This document shows, piece after piece, positions 6,911-13,276 of a stretch of DNA of 64,000 bases. The translations under genes and the position numbers were made by a program. The DNA comes from Bacteroidota bacterium. GTDB taxonomy: Bacteria; Bacteroidota; Ignavibacteria; UBA10030. Each line of letters begins with the position of its first letter. Position 1 is the first letter of the stretch. Below the pieces are notes generated by a model that was not told the DNA's origin, made no database searches, and was given only the letters and a program-made list of their open reading frames with translations. The stretch spans positions 12,092 through 76,091 of the forward strand of contig DAOOUW010000002.1 in the NCBI GenBank assembly GCA_035390885.1, written 5' to 3'.

Positions 6911-8019
6911 ACATTCTATTTCTTACCGATGAGCTTCTTCCGGGCGGTGTATCGAAGTATGTCGTTGATCTTGCAAATGCATTAGTATCGGAAGGAAATA
7001 CTGTCGCTGTAGCTTCAACGGATGGTCCCTATAGAAAAAGATTATCGCAAAATGTGCGTTTCATTCCAATTCAATTACTCCAACCCAATTCCTATAACAA
7101 AAATATATTGGGAATTCCATTGTCATTAACAGCTCTCAAACGACATCTTCGACAGGAACATTATGACATCATCCATACTCAAAAGAGGTATTCGGATTTA
7201 ATCGGTAAACTTATTGCACGCAAATTTAATATTCCTCATGTCTCAACCTGTCACAATACATTTCACAATCATAAATACTTATCTGTTTTTGGCGATTATA
7301 TTATTGCTGTGAGTGATTCGATTCGCTCTGTTCTTATCGAGGAGTATAAAAAATCTCCCGAGAGAGTCGTTACAATCCATAATGGAATATTTCCATTGAA
7401 ACCAGCCAATGATGAAGATATACGAAGTTTTCGTTCTTCACTAGGAATTGCGGATAGCTCTGCAGTTATTGGAAGCGTCGGGCAATTTATTCCAGCAAAA
7501 GATCGAACATCGCTTGTGCTGGGATTTTCAGAAGTTCTAAAAAATATCAATCGAGACGCTCATCTCATCATCGTTGGCGATGGACAGGAGAAGGAAAACA
7601 TTCTTGAGCTTATTGGACAACTTGGAATCCAAAATTTTGTGCATATTCTTCCACCATCGAGTAGTATTGAGTTGCTTTTTTCTTCTGTAGATTTTTGCGT
7701 ACTATCTTCTATTCAAGAAGGATTTCCTTATGTCATTCTTGAAGCGGCGAGTCTTAAGAAACCTTTTGTTGCAACTCAAGTTGGCGGAGTGTGTGAATTT
7801 GTGGAAAATGGAGTTACAGGTTTAACTATTCCTTCAAGATCGCCAGAACTTTTAGCTAAAGGAATGATTACGTTAATTAATAATCCTGATTTGTGCCGTC
7901 GTTTGGGAAATGCTGCTAGGGAACGATTCCAACAAAATCATACTTTTGATCGGATGATTCAATCAACATTAAGCGTATATGAAAAGGCATTACATAGAAA
8001 AAATTCATTTGCTAAGTAA
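6898..8019 (+). CDS. Family 4 glycosyltransferase
   Basis: 373 aa. N-terminus MNILFLTDELLPGGVSKYVVDLANAL and the E-x7-E motif EGFPYVILEAASLKKPFVATQVGG. Confidence 0.85.
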   Translation: MARMNILFLTDELLPGGVSKYVVDLANALVSEGNTVAVASTDGPYRKRLSQNVRFIPIQLLQPNSYNKNILGIPLSLTALKRHLRQEHYDIIHTQKRYSDLIGKLIARKFNIPHVSTCHNTFHNHKYLSVFGDYIIAVSDSIRSVLIEEYKKSPERVVTIHNGIFPLKPANDEDIRSFRSSLGIADSSAVIGSVGQFIPAKDRTSLVLGFSEVLKNINRDAHLIIVGDGQEKENILELIGQLGIQNFVHILPPSSSIELLFSSVDFCVLSSIQEGFPYVILEAASLKKPFVATQVGGVCEFVENGVTGLTIPSRSPELLAKGMITLINNPDLCRRLGNAARERFQQNHTFDRMIQSTLSVYEKALHRKNSFAK

Positions 8020-11000: not shown

Positions 11001-13276
11001 TTTTCTTTGATACGCTCGATGTAAGTTATCCAATTTTTGGTCTTCCTGGTGAGCATCGATTTTCTATCCATCTTAATCCAAATCTTGAGATTCCAGAAAT
11101 TACCGAAAAGGATAATTCAGCTTCTAAATCCGTTGTTGTACTATCGAATGCGTTTCAGTTATTAAAGCCAATGAGTCAATTTGAAATGTTTACGAATGAG
11201 ATTGAGCTGGTGAATCCTACTCAAAAAATCGAAGAAGGTGAGAAGGTTGAATTCGAGATTGATACACTTGAAGGATTTGGTATGGCTCGGCAACATGAAG
11301 CACAAATAGGAAAAGTTACAACTAAAATTTCTGGATTATCACTAATAGAAGGACAACGATACTTTTGGAGAGCAAAATTGCAGGGTAGTTCATTATGGTC
11401 AAATGGTTCATTTCGTACAGGATTCGATTCAATTGTGAAATGGCATCCGGTTAGTGATGAATGGCAGACTTTAACTTCAATGGATAGTGTAAAATACTTT
11501 CCTAATGCTGGAGTTCAATTTGATTCGATATACACAAACGTAAATATTATCGCAGCAAGTTATTACGAAGGAAGTTACGGAAATGTAAAATTCGATGGAA
11601 AAGAGGCGCTTCCGAATACTTTCTGGTGGGGACATTCAGTGATAGTAATCGACACCATTACTGCTCAACCGATTACAGTACAGCAGTTCGAAATTTCAGA
11701 TGCTACAGGCTCTGAAGCAACTCGGTTAGCAACCTTTTTGGAAAATTTACCTGATGGAACTATGATTATTCAAGTTGCTACTACGGACGGAGCACAAGGA
11801 TTGACGACGCGGATTAAGAACGCTGTAAAGAAATTTGGAAGCCGATATATTGATAGTATTCAATATAGAGATTCCTGGATTATGATTGGGAAGAAAGGAA
11901 TGCCTGTTGGAAGCGCACGTGAAGTTTGGCATAAGGGAATTCCTAATGTTATCGATCCTTCTACACTCGATACCACTTTCTTAAAACGAGTATTTCAAGG
12001 TTCTATTCAAACCCATATTATTGGGCAAGCGAGTAAGTGGAATGAAATGGCAATGAGAAAAGTAATGCCTCAAGGTACATCTATCGTAACAACCATTTTA
12101 GGAATTCAAAAAAACGGGGAAGTGGATACTCTCATTAGCTCATCTCCAGATACTATAATTTCACTTTCAAAGATACCTGCTAACATCTATCCAAATATAA
12201 AGTTAGCAATAATATTAAATGGGGATTCTATTGGCGCTTCACCTGTTGTAAAGGATTTGTCGGTTTCGCTTATTCCGCCAGCCGAGTTGGCTATCGGTCC
12301 TCGAACAGTATCGGTGGTTGGGGATTCTTTACTTGAAGGAAGCACATTGACTATTCAATCCGATATTTACAATGTTGGATATGCGCCTGCAGATTCATTC
12401 TATGTTACCGGAAAAATTATAAGCTCTCATGGAATAAGAGCATTAGATACGGTTTTCGTTCAGTCGCTTTCTAATGATTCCAGTATCAATATTCACTATT
12501 CGCTTTCTACTCAAGGTTTGCGTGGAGCAAATTCATTTATCATAGAGGTCGATCCGAACAATAACATTTCTGAACTTTACCGTAGTAATAACACTTACGC
12601 TCAAACATTCTATGTTGGCACAGATACAATTCCTCCAATGTTTGATATTACTTTCAATGGAAGAAGGATTCTCAATGGCGATTATGTGCTTGCAAATCCT
12701 CGAATTGATATTTCCATTACTGATAACAGTCCTATGTTGATAACAGACCCATCTAATGTGCTATTAATGTTGGACAATCGTCGAGTACAACTGGCTGCCG
12801 CCACTCAGGATAGCTTGTTTACTTCGCAAACAATATCAGAGCCAGCACGAATAACGTACCGTCCATCGCTTCCTAAAGGCGAGCATGCCTTGGAAATCAG
12901 AGTGAAAGATGTTACTGGTAATTGGTCGGATAGTATTGCAACAAAAATAGTTTTTCAAGTGGAAACTGAATCTCGATTGCTTCAGGTTTACAATTATCCC
13001 AATCCTTTTGGTCGCACAACGTATTTCACCTTTATTATAACTGGAAGAACTATGCCTGAAGAAGTATTGATTAAAATTTATACTGTTGCCGGCAGATTAA
13101 TCAAAACAATTCGATGTAATCAATCAGAATTACAAGCTGGCTTCAATAGAGTGTATTGGGATGGTAGAGATGCTGAAGGCGATGAAATTGCGAATGGCAT
13201 TTACCTTTACAAGATTCTTATGAAATGTGAAAATGAAACTGTAGAAGCGACACAAAAACTCGCAATAGTGAGATGA
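7979..13276 (+). CDS. Multidomain secreted C25-family (gingipain/PorU-like) cysteine peptidase with CARDB-like modules, an ILEI domain and a T9SS-type C-terminal sorting domain
   Basis: 1765 aa.
- Signal-like N-terminus IIVLTIFVLAPFCSLFSQ.
- PorU-like N-terminal motifs GIYRLQYQDI and DGEFDEGDYIEF.
- C25 core from ADYILLTAQTF to LLGDPSVQIAL, with NYIGHSGTQTW (His) and CDFGCSTAKF (Cys).
- CARDB-like VDPNNNISELYRSNNT.
- C-terminal YNYPNPF...WDGRDAEGDEIANGIYLYKI.

The start is uncertain because it overlaps the upstream GT4 by 41 nt. Confidence 0.85.
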   Translation: MKRHYIEKIHLLSNHLLSQIIVLTIFVLAPFCSLFSQNISEKSYTWGKVKTEQNGDALNVNVHFLKNAYSHPEFDVLNSNNENNTDNKKSYFRVALPAGYSVQSSKAKIGSQIQANVGINQNGLQVDEIEWFRGIQCARLSIDISTLSSDVDSIDFNLPLIRNTSNSVISPKYWDKYFSRVKDILFTNYSSSAESYTLLQWNDTTGGWIQYNQPYVRLSIPEDGIYRLQYQDIASIYSQASAIEPTTLKLFNKGKEIPVYVQGEEDGEFDEGDYIEFPALKNYGEKDYRQIPSSNEEYPEYMNRYTDTSYYWLTWGGEAGKRLASNDGITSSDTLLWYTEKIHVEKDAWLLPIGSDDIQNQYPYWQLNDMWCWSFLGAGGKISFPVNTSDVFAGKPGKVFVRFANYGASSTAPQKVWITFNSSAVLDSMYLNRFGHGLLSANVDPALIKSGNNALYLWSQSLSSGWNTVVYDWGELEYPRTLKVINDRLVATFIEPEQIGVHTLVVQGFTSSSIIIYKISQTPKKISHYELSTGAAPYSVSFPDTVNLNDKYIFCTEETIKKPRICEIKQFVNLRNSAHKADYILLTAQTFLTIAENYCRYIEQSTGLTTALINIRDVFDEFGYGYPTSESISEFLRATTRWQLPMPSYLFIVGDGTYDFKYNLAGTDTSKWVPNFVPPYGYPVSDALYTVLDDASPLPQLYVGRLPVESADEFQHYFEHYQQYNLQPNDEWNKTFLMFSGGSSSNPSEITIMKNVNQSVIDTIIKPVPLGGKARHFYKTINPPSDMGPFSVDEIQHAIDEGGIVINYIGHSGTQTWDNGITNINQLKNSVNRFPLICDFGCSTAKFAESNIRCFGELFVTTDDVPAIGYIGNSSLGFLTFAQRAPLLFYLTLIKDTVHCIGQTHLITKLRYVGTASQSMLNQILLYTNTLLGDPSVQIALPSAPNFRINESNISSTPNIPTDNEQLLNLTIPYINSGLVVPDTVKIKISHLFQGANYDTLIYRQCPLFFDTLDVSYPIFGLPGEHRFSIHLNPNLEIPEITEKDNSASKSVVVLSNAFQLLKPMSQFEMFTNEIELVNPTQKIEEGEKVEFEIDTLEGFGMARQHEAQIGKVTTKISGLSLIEGQRYFWRAKLQGSSLWSNGSFRTGFDSIVKWHPVSDEWQTLTSMDSVKYFPNAGVQFDSIYTNVNIIAASYYEGSYGNVKFDGKEALPNTFWWGHSVIVIDTITAQPITVQQFEISDATGSEATRLATFLENLPDGTMIIQVATTDGAQGLTTRIKNAVKKFGSRYIDSIQYRDSWIMIGKKGMPVGSAREVWHKGIPNVIDPSTLDTTFLKRVFQGSIQTHIIGQASKWNEMAMRKVMPQGTSIVTTILGIQKNGEVDTLISSSPDTIISLSKIPANIYPNIKLAIILNGDSIGASPVVKDLSVSLIPPAELAIGPRTVSVVGDSLLEGSTLTIQSDIYNVGYAPADSFYVTGKIISSHGIRALDTVFVQSLSNDSSINIHYSLSTQGLRGANSFIIEVDPNNNISELYRSNNTYAQTFYVGTDTIPPMFDITFNGRRILNGDYVLANPRIDISITDNSPMLITDPSNVLLMLDNRRVQLAAATQDSLFTSQTISEPARITYRPSLPKGEHALEIRVKDVTGNWSDSIATKIVFQVETESRLLQVYNYPNPFGRTTYFTFIITGRTMPEEVLIKIYTVAGRLIKTIRCNQSELQAGFNRVYWDGRDAEGDEIANGIYLYKILMKCENETVEATQKLAIVR
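11540..11899 (+). other. ILEI / FAM3 / GG (PANDER-like) domain inside the C25 protein
   Basis: The segment WGHSVIVIDTITAQPITVQQFEIS...ATRLATFLENLPDGTMIIQVATTDGAQGLTTRIKNAVKKFGSRYIDSIQYRDSWIMIGKKG aligns column by column with my recollection of human FAM3C: [25 protein letters not shown]...[60 protein letters not shown]. Confidence 0.7.
12974..13273 (+). other. C-terminal sorting domain (FlgD-Ig-like / T9SS type) of the C25 protein
   Basis: YNYPNPFGRTTYFTF...IKIYTVAGRLIKTI...VYWDGRDAEGDEIANGIYLYKILM. The same signature occurs at the C-terminus of the ORF ending at 59054. Confidence 0.7.

Follow-up and report, generated by a model that had tools for sequence, protein, structure and literature searches.

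An ILEI-bearing PorU-like C25 peptidase is conserved beside a WecG-family gene in glycan loci of Ignavibacteria-type bacteria

Introduction

Can a cysteine peptidase gene enclosed by glycosyltransferase genes encode a sortase for the very glycan that its neighbours make? This question is raised by a 64,000-nucleotide (nt) stretch of contig DAOOUW010000002.1 (positions 12,092 to 76,091; assembly GCA_035390885.1) from a Bacteroidota bacterium of the Ignavibacteria, hereafter called the window. It holds an open reading frame (ORF) for a C25 peptidase of 1765 amino acids (aa) that resembles PorU, the sortase in the T9SS (type IX secretion system), and lies in a packed array of glycan-biosynthesis genes. 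The original prediction proposed that this protein is a sortase-type transpeptidase, or a surface protease, genetically hard-wired to synthesis of the glycan to which it attaches cargo.

Porphyromonas, Tannerella and Prevotella are the only well-studied cases of this kind of attachment; in them, the genes for PorU, PorZ and about eleven linking-saccharide functions are scattered in the genome and were found singly by genetics and mass spectrometry. PorU cleaves the C-terminal domain (CTD) of cargo and joins the new C-terminus to the amine of a linking sugar on anionic lipopolysaccharide (A-LPS), which is delivered by PorZ (PMC10202324, PMC8545088). The acceptor in P. gingivalis is an amino-acid-substituted diamino-uronic sugar from the Wbp/Vim pathway (PMC7468200), and the linking sugar lies within a pentasaccharide that is assembled on undecaprenyl diphosphate and contains a deoxyhexose and a pentose (PMC13086638). 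Here a single glycan operon houses the gene of the sortase homologue, and dozens of species keep the two together.

Results

Domain architecture of the C25 protein

The C25 ORF (7979..13276, + strand) runs from ATG to TGA, uninterrupted over 1765 codons. Its start overlaps the upstream glycosyltransferase family 4 (GT4) gene by 41 nt, and the ATG of the downstream GT2 gene, at 13278, lies 1 nt past its stop, as the original prediction described. The GenBank entry with the identical protein is named "C25 family cysteine peptidase [Bacteroidota bacterium]" and derives from a metagenome-assembled genome (MAG).

PorU likeness runs the whole length of the protein, interrupted by roughly 600 inserted aa (CARDB, beta, ILEI, beta, CARDB) between the catalytic block and the last immunoglobulin-like (Ig) domain and CTD (Table 1). 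PorU of P. gingivalis (PG0026, structure 6ZA2, chain of 1156 aa) was its top match in the Protein Data Bank (PDB) by both sequence and fold, and both proteins run from N-domains through the C25 catalytic domain to an Ig domain and a retained T9SS CTD. In the PDB sequence search PorU was the sole peptidase match, in two pieces, 579-943 (catalytic) and 1549-1763 (C-terminal). AlphaFold models of the N-terminal 1060 aa and the C-terminal 726 aa had mean predicted local distance difference test (pLDDT) values of 87.4 and 88.7. The best Foldseek match of the former was PorU 6ZA2 (E 1e-35, 975 aligned columns), and that of the latter was again PorU (E 4e-13); the other fold matches of the C-terminal half were generic multi-Ig proteins with template-modelling (TM) scores below 0.25 and were disregarded. 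The gingipains RgpB (1CVR, E 1e-18, TM 0.64) and Kgp (4RBM, TM 0.60; both normalized on the target) share the catalytic fold and the dyad. Gingipains differ in lacking the PorU-type N-terminal beta-domains and in being hydrolases whose CTD is removed, and they match the protein much more weakly than PorU does.

The individual domains bear out what had been read from the letters. A signal-like N-terminus is seen as a hydrophobic stretch (aa 9-39) and as a helix (6-34) in the model. PorU likeness of the N-terminal region was recovered by two curated sortase models, by the top fold match and by a domain homologous to the propeptide-type N-domain of canonical PorU. The second CARDB module was called by Pfam; the first was uncalled in the Pfam scan (aa 946-1056) and was identified by its similarity to the second (hhalign probability 98.8%) and to the CARDB structure 3IDU. 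The ILEI domain was called by Pfam PF15711 (65.6 bits). The T9SS-type CTD exceeded the FlgD_ig cutoff and aligned with the PorU CTD; TIGR04183 scored 20.8 on it, just under the cutoff of 23, and 26-32 in three orthologues. The motifs GIYRLQYQDI, DGEFDEGDYIEF, NYIGHSGTQTW and CDFGCSTAKF were all located in the protein.

The ILEI domain matched FAM3C (5LC3, E 8e-8), FAM3B (2YOP) and the stem domain of POMGnT1 (5GGJ, E 8e-4) in the PDB sequence search. The POMGnT1 stem domain was reportedly found by Kuwabara et al. in 2016 to bind carbohydrate, and by analogy glycan binding by the domain described here is putative. With the insertion alone (aa 1050-1440) as query, 306 clusters (50% identity) reached E<=1e-10 in a set of 1.84 billion representatives; most of the matched proteins were 1700-1950 aa long and placed the match at the same position. 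Approximately five ILEI-type domains stand in tandem in some bacterial proteins of about 750-1300 aa (e.g. P0342, P0344 and P0347). Since such tandem copies occur in other bacterial proteins, the ILEI domain is a recurrent module of bacterial surface proteins and is not confined to relatives of PorU.

Catalytic dyad

The alignment with PorU 6ZA2 pairs NYIGHSG with NYAGHGG and DFGC with TATC, placing His811 and Cys842 on the His and Cys at chain indices 655 and 688. The latter is presumably Cys690 in UniProt numbering, on the assumption that the 1156-residue chain misses two N-terminal residues. The aligned positions correspond to the catalytic His/Cys dyad that has been described for PorU (PMC10202324). 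Gly810, His811 and Cys842 were invariant in 33 full-length homologues (24-54% identity), in which the motifs around the dyad, SYIGHSGTQTWDN and DFGCSTAKFAEP in consensus, were also invariant or nearly so. The dyad proposed from the sequence thus stands, with its codons at the positions originally given. Cys838, which had been offered as the alternative nucleophile, drops out, as it is not conserved in these homologues, whose consensus there is ITDFGC.

Relation to PorU and PorU2

The best NCBIfam match of the protein was NF052324, "putative type IX secretion system sortase PorU2", with 423.2 bits over aa 204-1046 (cutoff 450). The PorU model NF033707 gave 283.5 bits (cutoff 420), its best stretch covering model positions 5-745 of 1095. 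Five canonical PorU proteins from the homologue list scored 527-983 on the PorU model, over its full length (1-1095), and 141-179 on the PorU2 model, and a true PorU2 (P0047) scored 146 and 827.5, respectively. The protein and five orthologues scored 253-309 on the PorU model and 356-423 on the PorU2 model (orthologues 356-416). Because these scores fall under the cutoffs of both families, the protein and its orthologues form a third, ILEI-bearing clade that is neither canonical PorU nor PorU2. About 35 clusters at 90% identity have the full architecture of this protein, and the clade occurs mainly in Ignavibacteria-type lineages. It is missed by the current curated models of PorU and PorU2, so its members are annotated just as "C25 family cysteine peptidase".

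PorU2 is the best-scoring curated family and shares with the clade the C25 core, an FlgD_ig-type CTD and a similar length (approximately 1690 aa, vs 1765 aa here); an ILEI match was also found at four PorU2 loci. The PorU2/PorV2 type is represented by P0047 and L007, among others, and is found in Chitinophagaceae, Pontibacter, Fulvivirga and Bacteroidales MAGs. A PorU2-seeded search returned more than 2000 proteins at E<=1e-30, and those with a named source came from Chitinophagaceae-type bacteria and not from the lineages of this clade. Two features set PorU2 apart. P0047 lacks the propeptide-type N-domain (its model match begins at aa 9), whereas the protein described here has it. P0047 is also directly preceded by a bona fide PorV2 (NF052325, 549 bits), and PorV2 lies directly upstream of PorU2 in every such locus surveyed, in contrast to the clade. 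Canonical PorU differs in turn by the absence of the insertion and by its gene position, porU lying beside porV and the present gene in a glycan operon.

A canonical-PorU profile had matches in Latescibacteria, Eisenbacteria, Glassbacteria, WOR-3 and KSB1, and none labelled Ignavibacteria; nor did the length of any matched contig equal that of a contig bearing the clade. Within the 10 kb added to either side of the window on its contig there was no further C25 gene.

Literature searches retrieved no paper on PorU2, on an ILEI-bearing PorU or on a T9SS sortase gene inside a glycan operon, and nothing relevant for PorU combined with ILEI, WecG or FAM3; a single apparent match for "PorU2" was false, being "PorU" followed by a reference number. 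The original claim that no such architecture had been described therefore holds for the papers retrieved and has to be narrowed in two respects: NCBIfam already curates a PorU2 family of similar length, outside which the clade of this protein lies, and four PorV2-linked loci have an ILEI match.

Conservation of the linkage to the glycan locus

We surveyed 80 loci, one genome per GTDB species, using tblastn with the neighbours of the C25 gene in the window and PorV2 as queries. Context was detected within 10-kb flanks of MAG contigs, and a locus was counted as informative where it had enough flank. Several MAG labels on high-identity loci (Bacillota, Promethearchaeota and Chitinophagaceae) look like binning errors and were left unused. 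Loci are identified by number (L001 and so on).

In the ILEI-bearing clade, whose loci are mostly labelled Ignavibacteria, Ignavibacteriales or Melioribacteraceae, 32 of the 35 informative loci had a WecG homologue no more than 10 kb from C25; in 29 of them the distance was at most 3 kb, and WecG was usually the adjacent upstream gene. The PorV2-linked loci (Pontibacter, Fulvivirga, Niabella and Bacteroidales MAGs) showed the opposite pattern, with PorV2 in all 25 and WecG in none of the 21 informative ones (Fisher's exact test for WecG linkage, p = 1.5e-12). Of the neighbouring genes, WecG kept its link to C25 most consistently from species to species.

In the neighbourhoods of homologues at 52%, 39%, 37%, 35% and 27% identity, C25 either immediately follows WecG and GT4/GT2 genes or is interspersed with them. 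Because the glycan context is kept over this range, the position of the C25 gene is not incidental. The other glycosyltransferases around the WecG-C25 pair vary between species; in the complete genome CP053447.1 the order is Wzx, UDP-galactopyranose mutase, three GT2, GT4, WecG and C25. The pattern is that of a variable surface-glycan cassette around a conserved WecG-C25 core. Distant ILEI-bearing relatives (22-28% identity, one of them from KSB1) are flanked by WecG or a WecA/MraY-type transferase together with GT4. In the KSB1 case the C25 gene comes after GT4 and a WecA/MraY-type transferase; in another distant relative it comes after Wzx, GT4, GT4, GT9 and WecG, whose stop abuts the C25 start. 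That the linkage persists amid turnover of the neighbours and at 22-28% identity argues for selection on the pairing over passive synteny.

Either of two partners, never both, lies downstream of C25: a GT2 gene followed by a Wzi-like gene (the window and five relatives), or a gene for a 450-aa secreted protein (21 relatives). Both partner types are without a hydrophobic segment and end in or near an aromatic residue. Homology between the Wzi-like and 450-aa partners was ruled out (hhalign probability 1.2%). The 450-aa protein (L022:14719-16074 and 20 other loci) is encoded immediately downstream of C25 and is better conserved than the C25 protein (45-80% identity). It had no Pfam match in the two members scanned or pre-annotated; its family profile had no PDB sequence match, and no similarity was found to the PorQ-like protein of the window. 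This protein may be an outer-membrane partner. At one further locus (L004:16216-24924) the C25 gene is followed by genes for two large proteins with T9SS-type CTDs, of 2304 aa and of 567 aa, the latter with a cohesin domain; these are possibly local cargo.

Table 1. Features of the window: glycan operon, domains and dyad of the C25 protein, and other T9SS-type genes
Feature	Position	Strand	Evidence
GDP-mannose 4,6-dehydratase (gmd), 3' part, cut by window start	12..533	+	Pfam GDP_Man_Dehyd, E 1.6e-62; full gene in L088, same organism
GDP-L-fucose synthase-like epimerase/reductase (fcl)	554..1489	+	Pfam Epimerase, E 3e-63
UDP-glucuronate decarboxylase-like (UXS) short-chain dehydrogenase	1511..2443	+	Pfam GDP_Man_Dehyd and Epimerase; 79-80% identity to gene at same place in L001, L003, L036
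WecG/TagA/CpsF-family (GT26) glycosyltransferase	2516..3304	+	Pfam Glyco_tran_WecG, E 7e-57; TIGR00696, 137.8 (cutoff 69)
GT2 glycosyltransferase	3305..4249	+	Pfam Glycos_transf_2
GT1-type glycosyltransferase (TuaH-like)	4246..5454	+	Pfam Glyco_trans_1_4, weak; NCBIfam TuaH, 72 bits, below cutoff
Polytopic membrane protein, 11 hydrophobic segments	5426..6910	+	Hydropathy scan; no Pfam match; weak match to LA_3751/LA_3752 putative glycosyltransferase family
GT4 glycosyltransferase	6898..8019	+	Pfam Glycos_transf_1 and Glyco_transf_4; homologues upstream in many loci
PorU-family C25 protein of ILEI-bearing clade, 1765 aa	7979..13276	+	Pfam, NCBIfam, PDB sequence and fold matches
Signal-peptide-like N-terminus, aa 1-37	7979..8089	+	Hydropathy scan; model; homologue N-termini align at M1
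N-terminal domain, aa 38-200, homologous to Propeptide_C25-type N-domain of canonical PorU	8090..8578	+	hhalign vs canonical PorU N-termini, probability 98.4%, E 4e-15
PorU-type N-terminal beta-sandwich domains, aa 204-580	8588..9718	+	NF052324/NF033707 matches begin at aa 204/213; model aligns with PorU 6ZA2 over 975 columns
Peptidase C25 catalytic domain, aa 583-938	9725..10792	+	Pfam PF01364, 173.8 bits (cutoff 23), E 8e-51, model positions 1-373 of 374
Catalytic His811 (CAT)	10409..10411	+	Aligns with His of NYAGHGG in PorU 6ZA2, chain index 655
Catalytic Cys842 (TGC)	10502..10504	+	Aligns with Cys of TATC in PorU 6ZA2, chain index 688
CARDB-like beta-sandwich 1, aa 946-1056	10814..11146	+	hhalign vs module 2, probability 98.8%, E 6e-17; Foldseek to CARDB structure 3IDU, TM 0.75
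Beta-rich domain without family, aa 1057-1215, first part of insertion vs PorU	11147..11623	+	Confident all-beta model; no profile similarity to other modules
ILEI/FAM3-type domain, aa 1218-1314 (Pfam 1218-1307)	11630..11920	+	Pfam PF15711, 65.6 bits (cutoff 27), E 6e-18; model alpha/beta, pLDDT ~78-94
Beta-sandwich domain, aa 1318-1437, last part of insertion	11930..12289	+	Model
CARDB domain 2, aa 1444-1541	12308..12601	+	Pfam PF07705, 35.7 bits (cutoff 22.7), E 1e-8
Ig-like domain, aa 1549-1665, equivalent to PorU penultimate domain	12623..12973	+	phmmer: aa 1549-1763 align with PorU 6ZA2 residues 934-1153
T9SS type-A C-terminal domain, aa 1673-1765	12995..13273	+	FlgD_ig (aa 1681-1745), 29.2 (cutoff 27); aligns with PorU CTD
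GT2 glycosyltransferase directly downstream of C25	13278..14027	+	Pfam Glycos_transf_2, E 1.5e-31; same place, 57-61% identity in L001, L003, L024, L027, L059
Wzi-like secreted protein, putative outer-membrane barrel	13997..15643	+	Pfam Caps_assemb_Wzi, 36.9 bits (cutoff 30.1); no hydrophobic segment; ends ...GLGIW; kept in 5 relatives
Extracytoplasmic function (ECF) sigma factor (15693-16262) and anti-sigma factor (16237-16866), close of co-directional array	15693..16866	+	NCBIfam
BNR/Sortilin-type beta-propeller protein, 526 aa, with T9SS CTD similar to that of the C25 protein	57474-59054	+	CTD match
Two tandem PorV/PorQ-family barrels	59051-60022, 60019-60909	+	NF033709 PorV_fam, 77.8 (below cutoff 90) and 128.8 (above)

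The glycan operon

The C25 gene is part of a co-directional packed array in the order gmd, fcl, UXS-like, WecG/TagA, GT2, GT1, a gene for a protein with 11 transmembrane segments, GT4, C25, GT2, Wzi-like, ECF sigma and anti-sigma. An ECF sigma gene also follows the Wzi-like gene in L001, L024 and L027. In a contig of the same organism (L088; 8 mismatches in 11.5 kb) the array reaches 9.4 kb further upstream. This extension includes a WbaP-like polyprenyl-phosphate sugar-phosphate transferase (TIGR03025, 385 bits, cutoff 295), an RmlD-like reductase, a GT1, a DegT-type aminotransferase, a hexapeptide N-acetyltransferase, a UDP-glucose-6-dehydrogenase-like gene, and a GFO/Idh-type oxidoreductase whose best match, at a sub-threshold score, is a UDP-GlcNAc 3-dehydrogenase model. 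The operon also contains a nucleotidyltransferase/HEPN toxin-antitoxin-type pair (L088:7928-8838), which separates the UDP-glucose dehydrogenase-like gene from gmd and lies some 1 kb upstream of where the window begins.

From its gene content, the operon is predicted to assemble an undecaprenyl-diphosphate-linked glycan. Its genes provide for a deoxyhexose (through gmd and fcl) and for a pentose (through Ugd-like and UXS), and it has 3-dehydrogenase-like, aminotransferase and N-acetyltransferase genes toward an amino sugar. The initiating transferase (in L088) and several glycosyltransferases were seen, and the 11-segment protein could be a GT-C-type transferase or a polymerase. No Wzx was recognised in the operon of this organism; Wzx genes are present in the operons of L001, L002, L004, L022 and L091. 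An O-antigen-ligase-like gene lies at 32504-33670. It belongs to a set at 28293-33670 (+), 15-20 kb downstream, that comprises an MsbA-like ABC exporter, two GT9 (heptosyltransferase-like) genes and a Wzy_C/O-antigen-ligase-type protein with 12 transmembrane segments; this lipopolysaccharide (LPS) core/ligase cluster could attach the glycan of the operon to lipid A.

A complete Wbp pathway was considered and rejected, the set being only partial: the 433-aa dehydrogenase scored 525 bits as UDP-glucose 6-dehydrogenase vs 74 bits as WbpA/TviB, and the oxidoreductase, aminotransferase and acetyltransferase were all below the cutoffs of any specific family.

A promoter and terminator scan of positions 1-18000 gave promoter-like counts equal to the shuffled expectation, the sigma-70 consensus used being unsuited to the phylum, and no terminator-like site that convincingly parts genes. 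The GC content of the C25 gene is 0.37-0.38 (window mean 0.383), and the variable glycosyltransferase stretch alone drops to 0.35; nothing in the GC profile suggests that the C25 gene was inserted recently.

Discussion

The original prediction that the C25 protein is hard-wired to a glycan locus is well supported, because the dyad aligns with that of PorU, the N-terminal region is PorU-like, and relatives of as little as approximately 22-27% identity still have the gene at the corresponding glycan locus; nothing that we found refutes it. The results establish the family, fold, dyad and domain content of the protein and its conserved gene linkage, whereas transpeptidation, the nature of the acceptor and binding of the glycan by the insertion are the parts that we infer. 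We lean towards the reading that the C25 protein serves the T9SS as a sortase dedicated to the undecaprenyl-linked glycan from its operon. As we envisage it, the protein would be exported via the T9SS and held at the outer membrane by its own, uncleaved CTD. Cargo CTDs would be cleaved through a thioester on Cys842, which would be resolved by an amine on the glycan made by the same operon. The ILEI/CARDB insertion may hold that glycan and so take the role that a separate protein, PorZ, has in P. gingivalis. The proposed likeness to PorZ lies in presentation of a glycan to the active site (PMC8545088); PorZ differs in being a separate beta-propeller protein without an ILEI domain.

Several observations weigh against a dedicated sortase. 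The NCBI cutoffs for PorU and PorU2 are both missed. Neither the window nor any of 41 loci of the clade (0/41) has a PorV- or PorV2-like gene in the 10 kb around C25, and three informative loci (L015, L030 and L075) are without WecG in reach. The ILEI domain is not exclusive to the glycan-linked clade, as a tblastn ILEI match occurs in four PorV2-linked loci. With respect to the acceptor, the Wbp-like gene set was found only in this organism and in its closest relative, L003, and its dehydrogenase is UDP-glucose-dehydrogenase-like, not WbpA; no VimA- or VimE-type genes, expected for an amino-acid-bearing linking sugar, were found within the operon. Finally, a simple cargo that is anchored to the glycan would be predicted to show gene linkage too.

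We extend this reading, with clear reserve, to a self-contained attachment module, in which the ILEI/CARDB insertion would stand in place of PorZ, the acceptor would be a private, WecG-dependent glycan, and the Wzi-like or 450-aa protein would be a dedicated outer-membrane partner, both being inherited together with the sortase. Such a module is possible, and we would hold it only tentatively. If it exists, the spread from Ignavibacteria to KSB1 could mean an ancestral or alternative coupling of type IX secretion to surface glycans, and the operon would directly name genes for a "linking saccharide" outside the Bacteroidia.

The closest alternative overlaps with the dedicated sortase and differs from it solely on dedication to one glycan. 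According to this alternative, the protein is the only PorU orthologue of these lineages, a general T9SS sortase that works with whichever LPS its cell produces, and its adjacency to WecG is inherited synteny. Such a role would suit a protein that retains every PorU domain, and it fits both the canonical-PorU profile, which matches nothing labelled Ignavibacteria, and the statement that the T9SS only "may" be present in Ignavibacteriota (PMC11285876). We consider it unlikely, since the linkage survives turnover of neighbouring genes and a fall to 22-28% protein identity, and the added ILEI insertion is conserved within the clade.

A gingipain-like surface protease is also rather unlikely. It would be a T9SS cargo that is anchored to, or decorated by, the operon glycan, with the ILEI and CARDB domains binding substrate or matrix. 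The C25 family does hold true proteases of similar fold (RgpB and Kgp, TM 0.60-0.64), the protein carries an ordinary type-A CTD, its scores lie below both sortase cutoffs and no PorV-type gene is adjacent. Against this, the similarity to PorU extends well past the catalytic domain, to the N-domain, the N-terminal beta-domains and the terminal Ig domain and CTD, and PorU is by far the best PDB match (E 1e-35, vs 1e-18 for RgpB). One gene per locus and a strictly conserved WecG pairing over deep divergence would also be unusual for a degradative protease.

The position of the C25 gene between glycosyltransferase genes, the conserved secreted partner gene that is always downstream (Wzi-like or 450-aa) and the absence of an adjacent PorV would be compatible with a role apart from T9SS cargo sorting. 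The enzyme could, for example, be a transpeptidase or peptidase that attaches amino acids or peptides as substituents to the polysaccharide or trims them, or one that processes the Wzi-like or 450-aa partner. We regard this as improbable, as the retained CTD and the likeness to PorU over the whole length indicate T9SS attachment machinery, and we know of no precedent for such an enzyme. An inactive pseudo-protease that acts only as a scaffold or adhesin, in favour of which nothing speaks but the missed family cutoffs, is highly improbable given that Gly810-His811, Cys842 and the surrounding motifs are invariant or nearly so in 33 homologues.

A dedicated sortase has an analogue in the exosortase (EpsH/XrtA) and PEP-CTERM system, in which the gene of a protein-sorting transpeptidase lies among exopolysaccharide (EPS) glycosyltransferase genes, suggesting that the sorted proteins are attached to the product of the locus. 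The attachment idea for exosortases in EPS loci has been discussed (PMC7468200, section 20) and is the nearest published idea to ours. The GT4 gene upstream of C25 has as its best NCBIfam match a PEP-CTERM/XrtA-system glycosyltransferase family (145 bits, below cutoff). The likeness is one of analogy, not homology, as exosortases are unrelated polytopic inner-membrane enzymes with another sorting signal and another secretion route.

If the C25 protein is a sortase dedicated to its operon glycan, the locus provides a candidate enzyme-acceptor pair for T9SS surface anchoring in little-studied lineages of the Fibrobacteres-Chlorobi-Bacteroidetes (FCB) group, and the WecG/TagA-type glycosyltransferase is predicted to be the builder of the acceptor. 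It would also suggest that a sortase can dispense with PorZ by carrying a fused lectin-type domain in its place.

Other features of the window

The organism has T9SS parts besides the C25 protein. A propeller gene and two PorV/PorQ-family barrel genes (57474..60909) lie 44 kb from the C25 gene. The layout resembles PorZ-PorQ, though the 526-aa propeller had no PorZ match at E<=0.001. It is possible that these genes partner the C25 protein.

A second glycan-type set follows the PorQ-like genes at L092:10001-16484, past the window end at 64000. It consists of three GT2/GT21 genes and genes for an LPG_synthase_TM protein, a 540-aa protein that matches nothing in Pfam and a polysaccharide deacetylase of the CE4 type, to which VimE has been proposed to belong. 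The window also contains a tmRNA gene at 43783-44152 (+), with the tag ANYDYALAA (ARAGORN; Rfam RF00023, 190.6 bits).

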